Shown here in pieces: positions 17,583 to 23,747 of a stretch of DNA of 64,000 nt. The stretch's first letter is position 1. Each line of letters opens with the position of its first letter. Position numbers and translations under genes: made by a program. The notes under the pieces are model-generated. The model was not told the DNA's origin, did not search any database, and saw only the letters and a program-made list of their open reading frames with translations. Origin of the DNA: Spirulina sp. (GTDB lineage: Bacteria; Cyanobacteriota; Cyanobacteriia; Phormidesmidales; Phormidesmidaceae); NCBI GenBank assembly GCA_044070495.1, contig JBIPSI010000027.1, positions 1 to 64,000 of the forward strand, written 5' to 3'.

Positions 17583-18899
17583 TTACCCCCCCACCGCGCC
17601 GTAGACAATCCCCGACAGCGTGGCCATCACCACCACCAGGGCCACGAAGACCACGGTTTTCTTCGTGCCCATAATGCTGCGGATCACCAGCATGTTTGGC
17701 AACGATAGGGCGGGGCCAGCTAACAACAGCGCCAGGGCGGGGCCTTGGCCCATACCGTTGCCAATCAACCCTTGCAGAATTGGCACTTCGGTGAGGGTGG
17801 CGAAGTACATGAAGGCCCCGGCGAGGGCGGCGAAGAAGTTGGAAAACAGAGAATTGCCCCCCACCGCCCAGGTAATCCACTGGGAGGGGATCAGCGCCTC
17901 TTGGCCGGGGCGACCGAGCAATGCCCCCGCCACCAGCACGCCAAAGAACAGCAGCGGCAGAATTTGCTTGGCGTAGTCCCAGGAGGACTGGAACCACTCG
18001 CCTGCTTCGTCCTTATCCGTACTGGTGAGCCAGGAGAGGCCGATCACCGCTGCCCCAAAGGCCACCATGGGCTGGGCCACAAACTGGAAGGCCAGCACCG
18101 TGGTCACCCCCGCCACCAGGGCTACTTTGCCGGGGTTCAGGTTCAGCCAGCGAATTAGCATCACCGCCAAGGCTACCCCCAAGGCTCCGGTGATCCACCA
18201 CTTGGCAGCGTAGATCGCCGCCCAGGGGCCAACGGTTGACGCTGGGGCCGCCCAGTTGGCAAACACTAGAATGCCCACCATCACCCCAAAGAACAGGGCA
18301 TTTTGCCACAGGGGGCGAGCGACTTCCGGCTCCGACAACCCGGCCTGGGCTTCGATTTTTTCCAGTTCTTCCTGCCGGAAAATGAAGGCCATCAGCAGGC
18401 CAATCACCACGCTAAAAACAATTGCCCCCACCGCCCGCGCAAGGCCCAGCTTTAGCCCCAGCACCCGCGCCGTCAGGATAATCGCCAGCACGTTGATGGC
18501 GGGGCCAGAGTAGAGAAACGCCGTGGCAGGGCCGAGGCCAGCCCCCATGCGGTAAATGCCCGCAAACAGGGGCAGCACCGTGCAGGAACACACCGCCAAA
18601 ATCGTGCCCGACACCGAGGCCACACTGTAGGCCAAAACCTTGTTGGCGTGGGCCCCCAGGTATTTCATCACCGCATCCTGGGAGATGAACACCGCAATGG
18701 CCCCGGCAATGAAGAAGGCCGGAATCAAACACAGCAGCACATGCTCCTGGGCATACCAGCGCACCAAGTGAAGCGACTCAAACACCGCATTACGCAAGCG
18801 TTCTGAGTTCTGAATCGCCTCCACGGGCAGGTAAAAACAGGCCAGGAACCCCGCCAAAATCCACAGCAGCGGCTTCCATTCCGATTTCCAAAAATGCAT
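17583..18899 (-). CDS. ArsP/DUF318-family permease
   Basis: LAVCSCTVLPLF, FLYSGPAIN and MYFATLTEVP motifs; many TM segments. Confidence 0.88.
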   Translation of the reverse strand: MHFWKSEWKPLLWILAGFLACFYLPVEAIQNSERLRNAVFESLHLVRWYAQEHVLLCLIPAFFIAGAIAVFISQDAVMKYLGAHANKVLAYSVASVSGTILAVCSCTVLPLFAGIYRMGAGLGPATAFLYSGPAINVLAIILTARVLGLKLGLARAVGAIVFSVVIGLLMAFIFRQEELEKIEAQAGLSEPEVARPLWQNALFFGVMVGILVFANWAAPASTVGPWAAIYAAKWWITGALGVALAVMLIRWLNLNPGKVALVAGVTTVLAFQFVAQPMVAFGAAVIGLSWLTSTDKDEAGEWFQSSWDYAKQILPLLFFGVLVAGALLGRPGQEALIPSQWITWAVGGNSLFSNFFAALAGAFMYFATLTEVPILQGLIGNGMGQGPALALLLAGPALSLPNMLVIRSIMGTKKTVVFVALVVVMATLSGIVYGAVGG

Positions 18900-18962
18900 A
18901 GACAACCTTCCTCCCCAAGCTGGCTGGGGATCCTGTGGTGTAAACAATGGGTGAGTCAGGAA

Positions 18963-19027
18963 AGATCCCAGGGTTCTGTCTGGGGCTGTATTAGCTATCG
19001 CTGGTTAGATCAAGAACCCTGGGATCT
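18963..19027. repeat. Inverted repeat pair with 35-bp interior (REP-like)
   Basis: AGATCCCAGGGTTCT...AGAACCCTGGGATCT; the same arms recur at 22923-23059. Confidence 0.8.
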
Positions 19028-19034
19028 GATTGCC

Positions 19035-19277
19035 CTATCTGGGCAGTAGGGCGGCGATGGCGGCGGGTTCTAGGAGTTTGCCCTGGCTGAGGACTTGGCC
19101 GTTCACCACTAGGGCCGGGGTTTTCATCACGCCGCGCTTGACGATTTCCATGGTGTCGGTAATGTGGGACACCTCGGCCTCTAGCTGCCGATTGTCAATG
19201 GCCATCTTGGCGTTGGCCTCTAGTTGGTGGCACTTCTTGCAGCCTGTGCCTAGAATTTCAACCTTTAGGGTAGTCAT
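19035..19277 (-). CDS. Small thioredoxin-like redox-active disulfide protein
   Basis: ILGTGCKKC..GVMKTPALVVNG. Confidence 0.9.
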   Translation of the reverse strand: MTTLKVEILGTGCKKCHQLEANAKMAIDNRQLEAEVSHITDTMEIVKRGVMKTPALVVNGQVLSQGKLLEPAAIAALLPR

Positions 19278-19359
19278 GGCCGTTACCATTCCTTCAATGG
19301 AGTGAAATAGAAATAAATGGGGTGAAATCTGGGTTCAGTGGAAAAGGATCCGTGGGCAA

Positions 19360-19794
19360 TCAGTCCCTGGACTCTAGGGATGCCGCCGCCGTCAGCGAAT
19401 GGGCTTGAAACACCACACACTGCTTCCCCTCGTCAGGTTGGGCCGCGCCTCGCTGACACTGTTCCAACAGGGGACGGAGTTGGGCCTTCAGGGCTTGCAG
19501 GTTGCGGATGGTTTCGTCGATCTGCGCCATTTTCCTCAGCAGCCGATCCTGCACCTCCCGGCAAGACAGGCGTTGGCCATCCTGGAGGGCCAGCAGTTCC
19601 TTAATGTCATCCAGGCTTAGCCCTAGGGTTTTGGCCTGGGTGATGAAGGTGAGCCGATCCAGATCCGTCTGGTCGTAGAGCCGATAGCCTGCCGCCGTGC
19701 GCTGGGGGCTGGGCATGAGACCAATGCGCTCATAGAAATAGAGGGTCTGGGGGTTCAGCCCTAGGCGACGGGAGACTTCACCAACCTGAAACAT
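19360..19794 (-). CDS. MerR-family heavy-metal-responsive regulator
   Basis: TLYFYERIGL..R...GYRLY, LGLSLDDI and three Cys residues; start taken as ATG at 19794. Confidence 0.9.
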   Translation of the reverse strand: MFQVGEVSRRLGLNPQTLYFYERIGLMPSPQRTAAGYRLYDQTDLDRLTFITQAKTLGLSLDDIKELLALQDGQRLSCREVQDRLLRKMAQIDETIRNLQALKAQLRPLLEQCQRGAAQPDEGKQCVVFQAHSLTAAASLESRD

Positions 19795-19836
19795 GGAGCG
19801 ACCTCGCAGTGGCCTGACACGGGATTCCACCCCCAA

Positions 19837-19868
19837 AGCCTACCCCTTATACCCACGTATAAGGTCAA
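19837..19868 (-). promoter_or_regulatory. MerR-type promoter/operator
   Basis: Minus strand TTGACC-20 bp-TAGGCT, with the dyad CCTTATAC-N4-GTATAAGG (19845-19864) in the spacer. Confidence 0.85.
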
Positions 19869-19922
19869 GGGTTTAGGGTAAATATTGCAGAATCCGCCCC
19901 ATCGTTTGCCCCAGTTCCGCAG

Positions 19923-19940
19923 GTTACGTTAAATTAAGTA
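19923..19940 (+). promoter_or_regulatory. Possible HLR1 (RpaB) site upstream of ftsH2
   Basis: GTTACGTT-aa-ATTAAGTA imperfect direct repeat. Confidence 0.35.
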
Positions 19941-20138
19941 AAGATTTCGTCTCATACTTTTTACTTTAGACGGTAGTTTGGCAACTTCCTTGGCAACGAT
20001 TCCTTGCTTCCCAGGCATGATGGACATATCTGTTAACCCCGCGAATCGGGAACTTGGAGCCGGGGCTTGGTAGCTGCCTAACGCTGCTTTAGTCAACGCC
20101 GATAAATCTGTGCAAGTCGTGAATAGAGGCCATTGGTT

Positions 20139-22025
20139 ATGAAATTTTCTTGGCGAGTTGTCCTACTCTGGACCCTGCCGCTTTTGGTTGTAGGGTTCTT
20201 TCTGTGGCAAGGGGCCTTTGCTGGCGCTCCTGCCGATATGGGTCGCAACGCGGCCAGCACCCGCATGACCTATGGCCGCTTTCTAGACTATCTGGATGCT
20301 GGACGGGTGACAGCGGTGGATCTCTACGACGGGGGCCGCACCGCTATTATCGAAGCGGTGGATCCTGAGCTAGACAATCGCCTACAGCGCTGGCGGGTGG
20401 ATCTCCCCGGCAACTCCCCTGAATTGGTCAGTCGTCTGCGGGAGTCCAACATCAGCCTAGATTCCCACCCCCCCCGCAACGATGGGGCGTTGGTGGGTGC
20501 CCTGGGCAATCTGCTATTCCCCCTGCTATTGATTGGTGGATTGTTCTTTTTGTTCCGTCGCTCCGGTGGTGGTGCGGGTGGCCCTGGCCAAGCCATGAGC
20601 TTTGGTAAGTCTAAGGCCCGCTTCATGATGGAAGCCAAGACCGGGGTGATGTTCGATGACGTGGCCGGGATTGACGAAGCCAAGGAAGAATTGCAAGAAG
20701 TCGTCACCTTCCTGAAAAAGCCTGAGCGCTTCACCGCCATCGGTGCCCGCATTCCCAAGGGCGTGCTGCTGGTTGGCCCTCCCGGAACCGGAAAAACCCT
20801 GCTGGCTAAGGCTATCGCTGGGGAAGCTGGGGTGCCCTTCTTCTCCATCTCCGGTTCTGAGTTTGTGGAAATGTTCGTCGGGGTAGGGGCCTCCCGCGTC
20901 CGCGACCTGTTCAAAAAAGCTAAGGACAACGCCCCCTGCATCATCTTTATTGATGAAATTGATGCCGTGGGTCGTCAGCGGGGCGCAGGCATCGGCGGCG
21001 GCAACGACGAGCGGGAACAAACCCTCAACCAATTGCTGACCGAAATGGACGGCTTTGAGGGCAACACTGGGATTATTATTATCGCCGCCACCAACCGCGT
21101 CGATGTGCTAGATTCCGCCCTGCTGCGTCCCGGTCGCTTCGACCGTCAGGTGATGGTGGATCCCCCGGATATCAAAGGTCGGGTGGAAATTCTGGAAGTC
21201 CACGCCCGCAACAAAAAGCTGGCCGAGGAAATCTCCCTGGAGGCCATCGCCCGCCGCACCCCTGGCTTTACTGGGGCCGATCTGGCGAACCTGCTCAACG
21301 AAGCCGCCATCCTCACCGCCCGCCGCCGCAAAGAAGCCATGACCATGGCCGAGGTGGATGACGCCGTAGACCGGGTGATTGCCGGAATGGAAGGCACCCC
21401 CCTGGTAGATAGCAAGAGCAAGCGCCTGATTGCTTATCACGAAGTGGGCCATGCCATCGTGGGTACGCTGGTCAAAGATCACGACCCCGTGCAGAAAGTC
21501 ACCCTAATTCCTCGCGGACAGGCCCAGGGTCTCACCTGGTTTACCCCCAGCGAAGATCAAATGCTGATCTCCCGCGCCCAAATCCTGGCCCGCATCACCG
21601 GAGCCTTGGGGGGGCGTGCCGCTGAGGATGTGATTTTTGGCGATGCCGAAGTGACCACCGGAGCCGGAAACGACCTCCAGCAGGTGTCTAACATGGCCCG
21701 TCAGATGGTCACCCGCTTCGGGATGTCCGACCTGGGGCCGCTGTCCTTGGAAAGCTCCCAGGGCGAAGTGTTCCTCGGTCGTGATTGGCTTTCCCGCTCG
21801 GAATACTCCGAGGAAGTGTCCTCCCGCATTGACGCCCAGGTGCGTGTCATCGTAGACCAGTGCTATGAAGACGCCAAACGCATCATGCGCGACAACCGAG
21901 CGCTGATCGACCGCCTAGTGGATCTGCTGGTGGAACGGGAAACCATCGATGGCGACGAATTCCGCCAAATCGTCTCGGAATACACCGTCGTTCCTGACAA
22001 GCAGCAGTTTGTGCCCCAACTGTAG
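20139..22025 (+). CDS. ftsH2: ATP-dependent zinc metalloprotease FtsH2
   Basis: MKFSWR N-terminus, GPPGTGKT Walker A, HEVGH zinc motif. Confidence 0.95.
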
Positions 22026-22076
22026 GGTATCTAGGCTGACTCGGTAAGGCATACCCAGTAAGGCCGATTAATCACT

Positions 22077-22109
22077 AGAAAGGCTCGTCTACCCAGGCGG
22101 GCCTTTTCT
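22077..22109 (+). terminator. Intrinsic terminator after ftsH2
   Basis: AAGGCTCGTCT..AGGCGGGCCTT hairpin followed by T residues. Confidence 0.7.
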
Positions 22110-22183
22110 ATGAAGGCTTTTTAGCATTGTGTCAGGCAGATAGCCTTCAGCCTCTTATCGGAAAGGATGGTTATGGGCCATCG

Positions 22184-22210
22184 GTAGGAGCGAGGAGTTC
22201 TCGTCCCTAC
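22184..22210. repeat. GTAG-type REP
   Basis: GTAGGAGCGAG..CTCGTCCCTAC; a related copy lies at about 60598-60620. Confidence 0.55.
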
Positions 22211-22444
22211 CGACGGCTGTACGGGTTAGGAATCGTGTGTATGAAGTTCAGAATTGCCTCAAAGAGCGACTTCCATTGCAGTTCATGGGATCACGATGTG
22301 GTGGGCCGCAGCATCTCTAACAAGCCTTCATATATAAAGAAATGTTAACAGCCACTTAAGCTTTCCTATACTTTTGTTGCGCCACGTTGAGAAATCCCCG
22401 GCACCTAGACCAAGCTAAGGATAGTTATTTTCCCTGAGAAAGCC

Positions 22445-22888
22445 ATGTTCTCCCAACTCTCCCTAGCGCCTCGGTACCGCCTGGATGATGAGTCTGCCTG
22501 GTTGCAAGGCATTGATCCCTTGCGGCGCTACTGGGTGATGGTGAATGGCGAAGAAACCCTGGTGCGTCGGCTTCCTGGCCTCAGTACCCAGAACTTTGAC
22601 AACTTCAAGCAGGCCATTCGCGGCTTTCGGTCGTTGGATATTGGCCAAGAACTGACTTTGCCCGCCGAACTGGGCGAACAGTTGACCATCTTTTGCGTTG
22701 CGGAAAACACTTACGCCGTCGCCGATCATTCCTCTGCCCCGGTATGGCACCTGTTTGATCGAGAATCCCTCGAATCGCTTCTGATGACGGCCCATCCCGA
22801 CTGGCAATGTGCGTCCCAACATTTGCTTCTAGGGCAATCTGTTCTTACCGCCGCCTGGGGGCAACCTGTCGCGGCCAAAGCTGCCTAA
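22445..22888 (+). CDS. Conserved cyanobacterial hypothetical protein
   Basis: APRYRLDDE..WL.GIDPLRRYW and ESLLMTAHPDWQC motifs. Confidence 0.75.
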   Translation: MFSQLSLAPRYRLDDESAWLQGIDPLRRYWVMVNGEETLVRRLPGLSTQNFDNFKQAIRGFRSLDIGQELTLPAELGEQLTIFCVAENTYAVADHSSAPVWHLFDRESLESLLMTAHPDWQCASQHLLLGQSVLTAAWGQPVAAKAA

Positions 22889-22931
22889 GCCTCTAAATCT
22901 TAAGATTCCAGGATTATCCCACGATCCCAGG

Positions 22932-23044
22932 GTTCTACTGGGCCTTAGCCTAGGGCTATTGCACTGGCGTAAGCGACTATCGACCGGGAACGCAACCAAC
23001 TCGCCGCGTTCTACTGGGCCTTAGCCTAGGGCTATTGCACTGGC
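22932..23044. CRISPR. Orphan CRISPR-like repeat-spacer-repeat unit (37/39/37 bp) inside a REP-like hairpin
   Basis: GTTCTACTGGGCCTTAGCCTAGGGCTATTGCACTGGC is identical at 22932-22968 and 23008-23044. No cas genes occur in the window. Confidence 0.45.
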
Positions 23045-23078
23045 CCAAGAACCCTGGGACTAACTACGTATAAGCAAC

Positions 23079-23474
23079 CTATCCCCGGTTAAATTGCAGT
23101 AACTCTTGCAGAGAGGCCAGCAGTTTAATTTCGGTGCGTTGAATGTGGTCGGCGGTGGAAATGTCAAAAATCCATTGCACATTCACGGTAAAGAGGGGTG
23201 TTTTGACGCGACCCTTCACTGTCACTTGGCGACCACTATCAATGGGTTGCGTGTGGCTTTCTTTCGGGATTGCCCGCATTCCAGCCGCTTCCTGGGCTAG
23301 GTAGGTGGCAATGGCGGGTGGCCCCACAATGGCTTCCTCGAAGGGTGGGCATAGGCAACCTTCATCGCTGAATAGCGTGGCCACAGCGGCGTAGTTGCCC
23401 TGGTTGAAATGCTGGAAATAGCGCTCCGTAACCGGGTCTAGGGTGGGGGTAGTTTGGGAAAGGGTTTGAACCAT
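23079..23474 (-). CDS. NTF2-like OCP C-terminal domain homolog (CTDH)
   Basis: YFQHFNQG..LF..PPFE..G.VKTPLFTVNV.W..LLASLQELL; adjacent to an HCP gene. Confidence 0.88.
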   Translation of the reverse strand: MVQTLSQTTPTLDPVTERYFQHFNQGNYAAVATLFSDEGCLCPPFEEAIVGPPAIATYLAQEAAGMRAIPKESHTQPIDSGRQVTVKGRVKTPLFTVNVQWIFDISTADHIQRTEIKLLASLQELLQFNRG

Positions 23475-23519
23475 GGGGAGTAGGGGGTTGGGGGATGAAC
23501 TGAGACAGGGTGTAGGGTG

Positions 23520-23640
23520 GGAAGGTGCAAGGTGGGGGGGGTGAAGGTGGGAGGGGTGAAGGGGGGAGGGGTGAAGGTGGGAGGGGTGAAGGTGGGAAGG
23601 TTGAAGGTGGGGGGGGTGAAGGTGGGAGGGGTGAAGGTGC
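23520..23640. repeat. 15-bp G-rich tandem repeat (about 8 copies)
   Basis: GGGGTGAAGGTGGGA-like units in the HCP-CTDH intergenic region. Confidence 0.85.
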
Positions 23641-23747
23641 TCTGTATTGCCTAGATATGAAAAAGGGATGGCTACCCTGTTGGAGGCCGTGGGGCGCTCT
23701 CGGATAACCATCCCAATGTCACAATTTAGCCATCATAGGCTAGGAAA

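Follow-up and report, generated by a model that had tools for sequence, protein, structure and literature searches.

Off-target spacer integration by the Cas1-Cas2 integrase of clustered regularly interspaced short palindromic repeat (CRISPR) systems is known and rarely seen; most demonstrations have relied on over-expressed Escherichia coli Cas1-Cas2, and the few natural cases rest on circumstantial evidence. Such integration reportedly spawns "neo-CRISPR" units, an observation that citing papers attribute to Nivala, Shipman and Church, writing in Nat Microbiol in 2018, and according to one citing paper, these authors found circumstantial evidence in two other species. Here, we describe a natural candidate for a unit of this kind at positions 22923 to 23059 of the first 64,000 nucleotides of contig 27 (JBIPSI010000027.1) of a Spirulina sp. 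genome (GCA_044070495.1), this whole 64,000-nt stretch being referred to below as the window. Within a multicopy hairpin element, two identical 37-nt repeats enclose a 39-nt insert, and we favor, with moderate confidence, the interpretation that the unit arose as a one-off ectopic full-site spacer integration by the Cas1-Cas2 machinery of the host.

Like the neo-CRISPR units, as citing papers describe them, this unit is a repeat-length duplication around a spacer-length unique insert outside the arrays, and it also lies in a genome with active-looking adaptation modules. It differs from them in being natural and in belonging to a filamentous cyanobacterium whose CRISPR systems are of types I-D and III-D and have a 37-nt ruler, whereas the neo-CRISPR units reportedly came from an over-expressed E. 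coli type I-E system with a length of 28 nt. It is, in addition, a single unit within a multicopy hairpin element, known here from its sequence alone. A second precedent comes from E. coli Cas1-Cas2 acting on a CRISPR-less plasmid, where integration takes place beside an inverted repeat that tends to extrude a cruciform, a DNA structure to which Cas1 binds (as summarized in PMC5389526). The likeness to our candidate lies in the cruciform-capable inverted repeat with one cut in the stem, but those in vitro events were mostly half-site and on plasmids, whereas the candidate is complete, repaired, and chromosomal. Finally, a type III-A Cas1-Cas2 is described as promiscuous in vitro unless HU is added (PMC13769266).

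The repeat-insert-repeat unit and its hairpin target

The region has the layout GATCCCAGG-R-S-R-CCAAGAACCCTGGGA, in which R is the 37-nt repeat GTTCTACTGGGCCTTAGCCTAGGGCTATTGCACTGGC and S is the 39-nt insert GTAAGCGACTATCGACCGGGAACGCAACCAACTCGCCGC, with a GC content of 61.5%. Its parts, together with an intact member of the same hairpin family, are located in the window as follows.

22923..22936, no strand assigned: left arm of the hairpin, GATCCCAGGGTTCT, common to 70 arm pairs of the genome; the duplication starts inside this arm, between GG (22930-22931) and GTTCT (from 22932)
22932..22968, forward strand: first copy of R (pseudo-repeat), which takes in the left arm's inner 5 nt and 32 nt of the element interior
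22969..23007, forward strand: S, the spacer-like single-copy insert of 39 nt, without a second copy in the genome
23008..23044, forward strand: second copy of R, matching the first at 37/37 positions and lying inside a separately built Logan contig (22947-23130)
23045..23059, no strand assigned: CCA, the 3-nt end of the original interior, followed by the right arm AGAACCCTGGGA
18963..19027, no strand assigned: intact sibling with 15-nt arms and a 35-nt interior, the reference for the "empty" layout (DNA fold, -17.2 kcal/mol; z = -5.5)

The identity between the two copies of R ends at both edges, and the junctions of R-S-R show no microhomology. None of 100 shuffled versions of the window gave two matches to R at up to 3 mismatches, and both R and S proved to be single-locus sequences in the 5.31-Mb assembly even when up to 8 mismatches were allowed. 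The arms TCCCAGGGTTCT (22925-22936) and AGAACCCTGGGA (23048-23059) are complementary at 12 of 12 positions, and excising one R together with S leaves an interior of 35 nt between them. This is exactly the interior length of the sibling at 18963-19027, and it falls in the range of 33 to 38 nt seen in all 36 long members of the family in this genome. Since the removal restores a canonical family element, the extra 76 nt represent the derived state, made up of a 39-nt insertion and a 37-nt target duplication. Both the 37-39-37 geometry and the restored arms with a 35-nt interior had been proposed from inspection of the letters, and both were borne out by computation.

The family itself was defined by a scripted search for the arms CCCAGGGTTCT and AGAACCCTGGG, allowing at most 1 mismatch in each and at most 400 nt between them, which returned 70 left-arm/right-arm pairs in this genome. 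Thirty-one pairs have a loop of 3 to 4 nt and correspond to the 33-nt palindrome AGATCCCAGGGTTCT-NNN-AGAACCCTGGGATCT, with arms of 15 nt, and 36 pairs constitute a long form with an interior of 33 to 38 nt. Only three pairs fall outside both forms, namely, the candidate (111 nt), a 118-nt pair with both arms mismatched, which is probably a chance pair, and a 192-nt pair, which is an element with another repeat nested inside. The hairpin target of the candidate is itself strong, with a DNA fold z of -5.7.

The geometry of the candidate turned out to be singular. The 39 nt that follow the second copy of R are 32% identical to S, which is chance level, and no head-to-tail unit was found here or elsewhere in the genome. 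When perfect repeats present in two copies and at least 24 nt long were considered, a 37-nt repeat combined with a spacer of 34 to 39 nt occurred outside the three large arrays only at the candidate and at a mini-array on contig C5. A mismatch-tolerant scan of the genome (repeats of 33 to 41 nt and spacers of 30 to 48 nt) returned 14 units outside the four arrays, these being the candidate, a mini-array on C20, 1 repeat in coding sequence, and 11 units of low complexity or tandem type. Across 53 genomes of the genus, exact arms separated by 98 to 126 nt were seen at 20 places on the forward strand, spread over 11 genomes; 19 of these places are two adjacent elements, and an internal R-S-R was present at the candidate only.

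The assembly is a draft of 74 contigs with a GC content of 56.7%. The separately built Logan contig that spans 22947-23130 shows 0 differences from the window and derives from the public runs X1 and X2, the contigs of two further runs, X3 and X4, being without coverage of the locus; none of the 13 public runs listed is an RNA run. X1 and X2, which agree in size and in their contigs, probably represent a single bioreactor-metagenome data set deposited under two entries, and this data set is probably the source sample of the assembly. Because this independent contig agrees with the window across 22947-23130, an assembly artefact of the genome itself is unlikely.

Host adaptation modules and the case for ectopic integration

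The genome encodes two Cas1 (312 and 288 bits) and two Cas2 proteins (79 bits each), all from genes without internal stops. An NCBIfam scan identified the first module as type I-D, with Cas3', Cas10d/Csc3, Csc2, Csc1, Cas6, Cas4, and Cas1d, and the second as type III-D, with Csx10, Csx19, repeat-associated mysterious proteins, a Cas10-like protein, and Csx3, followed by Cas1 and Cas2 and without Cas4. The cas1-cas2 pair of the I-D module is located at C1:146239-148017, with cas4 at C1:145410-145985, and that of the III-D module at C20:29641-30878. The following arrays are present.

C1:148290-152275: type I-D array with a 37-nt repeat and 54 spacers of 34 to 42 nt (mode, 36 nt; 39 nt in 1/54)
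C20:31275-33131: type III-D array with a 37-nt repeat and 24 spacers of 35 to 43 nt (mean, 38.8 nt; 39 nt in 3/24)
C16:70096-74234: array in two blocks with a 36-nt repeat and spacers of 35 to 50 nt, without a nearby cas1
C5:49046-49290: array of four repeats, with a 37-nt repeat ending GTTGAAAG, without a nearby cas1
C20:12743-12931, reverse strand: mini-array of two good repeats and one degenerate repeat, upstream of the III-D effector genes, without a nearby cas1

The repeat of the C5 array may resemble the type V-K repeats of CRISPR-associated transposons, and the repeat of the C20 mini-array shares its 3' half, CCCCGCAAGGGGACGGAAAC, with the repeat of the main III-D array.

Both cas1-linked arrays thus have repeats of 37 nt, the length of the duplication, and the 39 nt of the insert lie within both spacer ranges, at the center of the III-D spacer lengths and in the tail of the I-D spacer lengths. 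The mean period of the III-D array is 75.8 nt, compared to 76 nt in the candidate. The argument for ectopic integration is therefore one from geometry: Cas1 and Cas2 are present in the host, the duplication has the length of the host repeats, the insert is within the range of the host spacers, and the insert is unique. The sequence-only reading had proposed precisely a Cas1-Cas2 insertion with a 37-nt target duplication, to be given up if the host lacked cas1 and cas2 or used other repeat and spacer lengths, if the 39-mer was multicopy, or if the 76-nt unit occurred in tandem elsewhere. None of these turned out to be the case, and the proposal stands as the most likely explanation of the locus. 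The III-D-linked integrase is probably a better candidate for the enzyme than the I-D one.

The left junction of the candidate led to a further comparison with the III-D array. The III-D leader ends ...CCAAGGCCGAGG and the III-D repeat begins GTCAGA, and the left junction of the candidate reads ...CGATCCCAGG|GTTCTA, so that from position -6 to position +2 the two (CCGAGG|GT in III-D and CCCAGG|GT in the candidate) match at 7 of 8 positions. When this genome is compared with G005, one of the two nearest species genomes, identity reaches 96% over the final 200 nt of the III-D leader plus the first repeat and 87% over the flanking coding DNA, indicating that the III-D leader is under constraint. 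The resemblance between the two junctions is nevertheless a hint rather than a test.

From these elements we infer the following course of events. Cas1-Cas2 loaded with a 39-bp prespacer would attack the top strand at CCCAGG|GTTCT, in the left arm of the cruciform-prone hairpin, at a junction that would mimic the III-D leader-repeat junction CCGAGG|GTCAG. A second attack would then take place on the other strand, 37 bp away, that is, at a distance of one repeat length set by the ruler of the enzyme. Repair of the gaps would duplicate the 37 bp and leave a pseudo-repeat, a spacer, and a second pseudo-repeat.

The product should not be equated with an array. With the bona fide I-D and III-D arrays of the host, the candidate shares the 37-nt repeat unit and the 76-nt period, but its repeat is of unrelated sequence and is present in two copies only, and it lacks a leader, neighboring cas genes, and the conserved 3' handle (..GAAAC). 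Apart from the resemblance to the final 6 nt of the leader in the III-D array, no homology to a leader was detected. The sequence-only reading had spoken of a nascent array created by mis-integration; mis-integration passes the tests of geometry and host, but "nascent array" is an overstatement, and the candidate is not a functional array by any criterion tested. The same reading had also held that the duplicated target resembles a CRISPR repeat, which did not hold up, since R shows no significant similarity to any of four host repeat types, the C20 mini-array repeat not being among those compared. This absence of similarity is also the first of several observations that weigh against ectopic integration.

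A second group of such observations concerns the junction and the sample. The junction mimic was noticed post hoc and by eye, in the course of about 8 array and orientation comparisons, and the CCCAGG|GT motif is carried by every one of the approximately 70 family elements. The candidate is, moreover, a single event in a draft genome. The empty allele was not found: the two nearest species genomes, G005 and G019, lack the entire hairpin, a 32-nt string of the interior gave 0 matches in the JGI metagenomes, and the contigs of public runs that cover the locus, probably from the source sample, show the filled form only. This comparison, which the earlier reading had called for, was made across species, metagenomes, and public runs and returned no empty form and no strain variation.

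A third group concerns the origin of the insert. No protospacer or protospacer-adjacent motif (PAM) was found across phages, plasmids, IMG/VR, JGI metagenomes, and 172 other genomes of the family. In blastn searches of 50,697 records from phages and 72,556 from plasmids, the 39-mer gave chance-level partial matches only (E >= 0.6); in IMG/VR, neither the exact 39-mer nor its 22-nt core was present (0 matches each); among JGI metagenome contigs, the 26-nt core of the insert gave 0 matches; and the 172 family genomes held 0 copies of the 39-mer at up to 3 mismatches. As a control, we compared the genuine host spacers of both cas1-linked arrays to the phage collection, and 0 of 78 matched. Since genuine spacers do not match the phages either, the missing protospacer is weak counterevidence, and the proposed search for a spacer source and a PAM, once run, came back empty without deciding the matter. 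The GC content of the insert is higher than the spacer means of both arrays, which are 49.5% for III-D and 54.7% for I-D.

The composition of the insert offered little else. Genuine spacers show no terminal-nucleotide bias, which makes a test for such a bias on S uninformative. The frame ATIDRERNQLA, taken earlier as a sign that the insert is plausible coding sequence, exists in S but follows a stop codon. With four open frames out of six, coding potential says nothing about the origin of S, and this part of the earlier argument falls away.

Other routes to the same geometry

The explanation that survives best after ectopic integration is a hairpin-driven error of replication or repair, in which the fork stalls or breaks at the hairpin, about 39 nt are copied from another molecule or added as filler DNA, and synthesis is reprimed 37 nt upstream, the CRISPR-like lengths being coincidental. 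The strong fold of the target speaks for such an error, and so does the behavior of the family, whose copies are often found in local tandem pairs or triplets with a period of 79 to 100 nt. The most pertinent case is a family member at C9:157493-157692, where a 100-bp tandem duplication comprises the hairpin element and 44 nt of flank, with 2 differences between the copies. The left edge of this duplication falls, within an ambiguity of 2 nt, at the same arm position as in the candidate, GG|GTTCT, which counts against integration, since a duplication starting there suggests that this position may be a hairpin-specific breakpoint that operates without Cas1-Cas2. Against a fork error, no template for the 39-mer was found in the assembled genome or in about 10 kb on either side: outside the locus, the longest stretch of the genome that matches S exactly measures 14 nt and occurs twice, which is about what chance predicts by our own arithmetic, no match of at least 15 nt exists in the genome, and none of at least 10 nt occurs within window positions 12000-34000. 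The junctions, as noted, lack microhomology, no other family element across the 53 genomes combines an internal duplication with an insert, and the exact match to the host repeat length would have to be due to chance. We therefore regard a fork error as rather unlikely, a possibility nonetheless to be taken seriously.

An old tandem duplication of the element and its flank is an improbable source of the unit. According to this explanation, the first copy lost its right arm, the 37-nt stretches were homogenized by gene conversion, and the 39-mer is a decayed right flank. The common occurrence of tandem pairs in the family, with periods of 79 to 100 nt, is in line with it, as is a weak alignment between S and the right flank (21 of 32 positions; p of about 0.03, uncorrected for at least 4 comparisons), which must also be entered against integration. 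The similarity is, however, not significant once corrected, and its score is reached by 4% of random genomic windows. More generally, comparing S and R to the flanks, the arms, each other, and the four host repeat types (the C20 mini-array repeat was again not compared) revealed nothing significant. A perfect identity over 37/37 positions beside a neighbor that is about 35% divergent would require special pleading, and what remains after removal of the unit is a perfect canonical element.

Little probability attaches to a small mobile element or integrase of another, non-CRISPR kind that generates long target duplications. Small mobile repeats abound in the genome, among them the hairpin family and a MITE (miniature inverted-repeat transposable element) with a core present in 82 copies, but the insert of the candidate is single-copy. 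In a family member at C15:40101-40314, this MITE, about 155 nt long, is nested in the hairpin element, and the target sequence duplicated around it is just some 6 nt long (CCTTAG), in contrast to the 37 nt of the candidate. To our knowledge, the target duplications made by known transposases measure 2 to 15 bp, which also argues against such an element. The 82-copy repeat interrupts the region of a Y1-transposase-like gene as well (C3:236260-236400).

An assembly or binning artefact is highly improbable: the genome is a 74-contig draft and the only public runs with the locus cover it at a word depth of about 2 to 3, but the separately built contig agrees without a difference, and a 37-nt repeat is an atypical source of misassembly because it is shorter than the reads.

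The hairpin family, its neighborhood, and the host arrays

The hairpin of the candidate sits in an intergenic block between two convergent genes, with the following features of the window.

22445..22888, forward strand: upstream flanking open reading frame (ORF) of 147 amino acids, ending 35 nt before the left arm and conserved in relatives
23079..23711, reverse strand: downstream flanking ORF of 210 amino acids, convergent, ending 20 nt past the right arm and conserved in relatives
22892..23072, no strand assigned: lineage-specific intergenic block with the hairpin, absent from the two nearest species genomes, G005 and G019

In G005 and G019, which are about 87% identical to this genome over the upstream gene and 80 to 81% identical over the downstream gene, the two convergent genes almost abut. 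The block is flanked by a pair of imperfect copies of the ancestral gene end, AAGCTGCCTAAGCC and AAGCAACCTATCCCC (window 22870-22892 and 23068-23090), of which the relatives carry one, AAAGCGGCCTAGCCCC; the imperfect copies may be an old target duplication from the arrival of the block. The start of the 210-amino-acid ORF on the reverse strand (window 23525-23711) encodes a run of PSHLH-type repeats from GGTGAAGG-like low-complexity DNA, which recurs on further contigs.

Outside this locus, the long form of the element with exact arms is found in 40 of the 53 genus genomes, and species G004 holds 50 long-form copies with a clear interior consensus. In the present genome, the interiors are near-randomized and the arms are intact, with only 15 of 630 interior pairs scoring above the 99.5th percentile of a shuffle null. 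This low similarity led us to consider the interiors as captured spacers, which was ruled out by the consensus shared among the G004 interiors. Because that consensus is obvious, the interiors are best regarded as diverged homologues of an element resembling MITEs or repetitive extragenic palindromes (REPs). The element is multicopy and intergenic, has conserved inverted arms, and is common to related genomes, and it thereby resembles known REP, REPIN (REP doublets forming hairpins), and MITE-like families, with which it shares the multicopy intergenic hairpin and the conserved 15-nt inverted arms, here in a short form (3- to 4-nt loop) and a long form (33- to 38-nt interior). It differs from these families in that no associated transposase was identified.

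Specifically, no transposase, such as a REP-associated tyrosine transposase (RAYT), flanked by the family arms was found, and the two Y1_Tnp matches of the genome are both without these arms. One of them adjoins a different REP. This second REP-like palindrome, GTAGGGTGGGCACTGCCCACC, occurs at C3:236120-236150, C13:66513, and C19:9771, beside a Y1-transposase-like gene and also in small tandem pairs, and may represent the REP that goes with a RAYT in this genome. Rfam returned no match for window positions 18500-23500 at E <= 1, and one full-text search of the literature yielded nothing specific on this hairpin family in Nodosilinea or Leptolyngbya. Among the matches listed for the short palindrome were records titled Nodosilinea, Leptolyngbya or Leptolyngbyaceae, Phormidesmidales, Phormidium, and Shackletoniella, as well as others.

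The short palindrome was also encountered in and near the arrays of the host. One 33-nt copy (C20:12786-12818) fills most of the 42-nt "spacer" that precedes the final, degenerate repeat in the C20 mini-array, and another (C16:70145-70177) lies in a 48-nt spacer adjoining the degenerate end repeat of the C16 array. A third (C16:70775-70807) is located 21 nt past the other end of that C16 block, and a fourth (C20:29425-29457) precedes the III-D cas1, 184 nt upstream of it. In species G004, too, one palindrome is found at the end of the orthologous array (L136, on G004:C113, at about 480-560). By our own arithmetic, at least 3 of the 31 short palindromes lie within about 9 kb of array DNA, far above the share expected from the genome as a whole. 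Any small mobile element could, however, also settle in the trailer ends of arrays, which are neutral ground.

We consider it quite unlikely, if conceivable, that the hairpin family and the CRISPR adaptation machinery interact systematically. In that case, the approximately 70 cruciform-prone elements bearing CCCAGG|GT would be standing sites of ectopic integration and seeds of new arrays, and the palindromes at old array ends, in at least two arrays of the host and one of another species, could also be captured spacers.

As for the candidate itself, its particular value is that a single genome reveals the integrases, their arrays, the length of the ruler, and the target in unmodified form. 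The empty hairpin together with the I-D and III-D Cas1-Cas2 of the host forms a testable substrate for determining what a cyanobacterial integrase with a 37-nt ruler recognizes outside arrays, and the same substrate bears on whether new CRISPR loci can start on preexisting palindromic repeats. If the unit was not made by Cas1-Cas2, it would be a hairpin-associated insertion with duplication that mimics CRISPR geometry, and this would matter for any attempt to call neo-CRISPR units from genome sequences by themselves.

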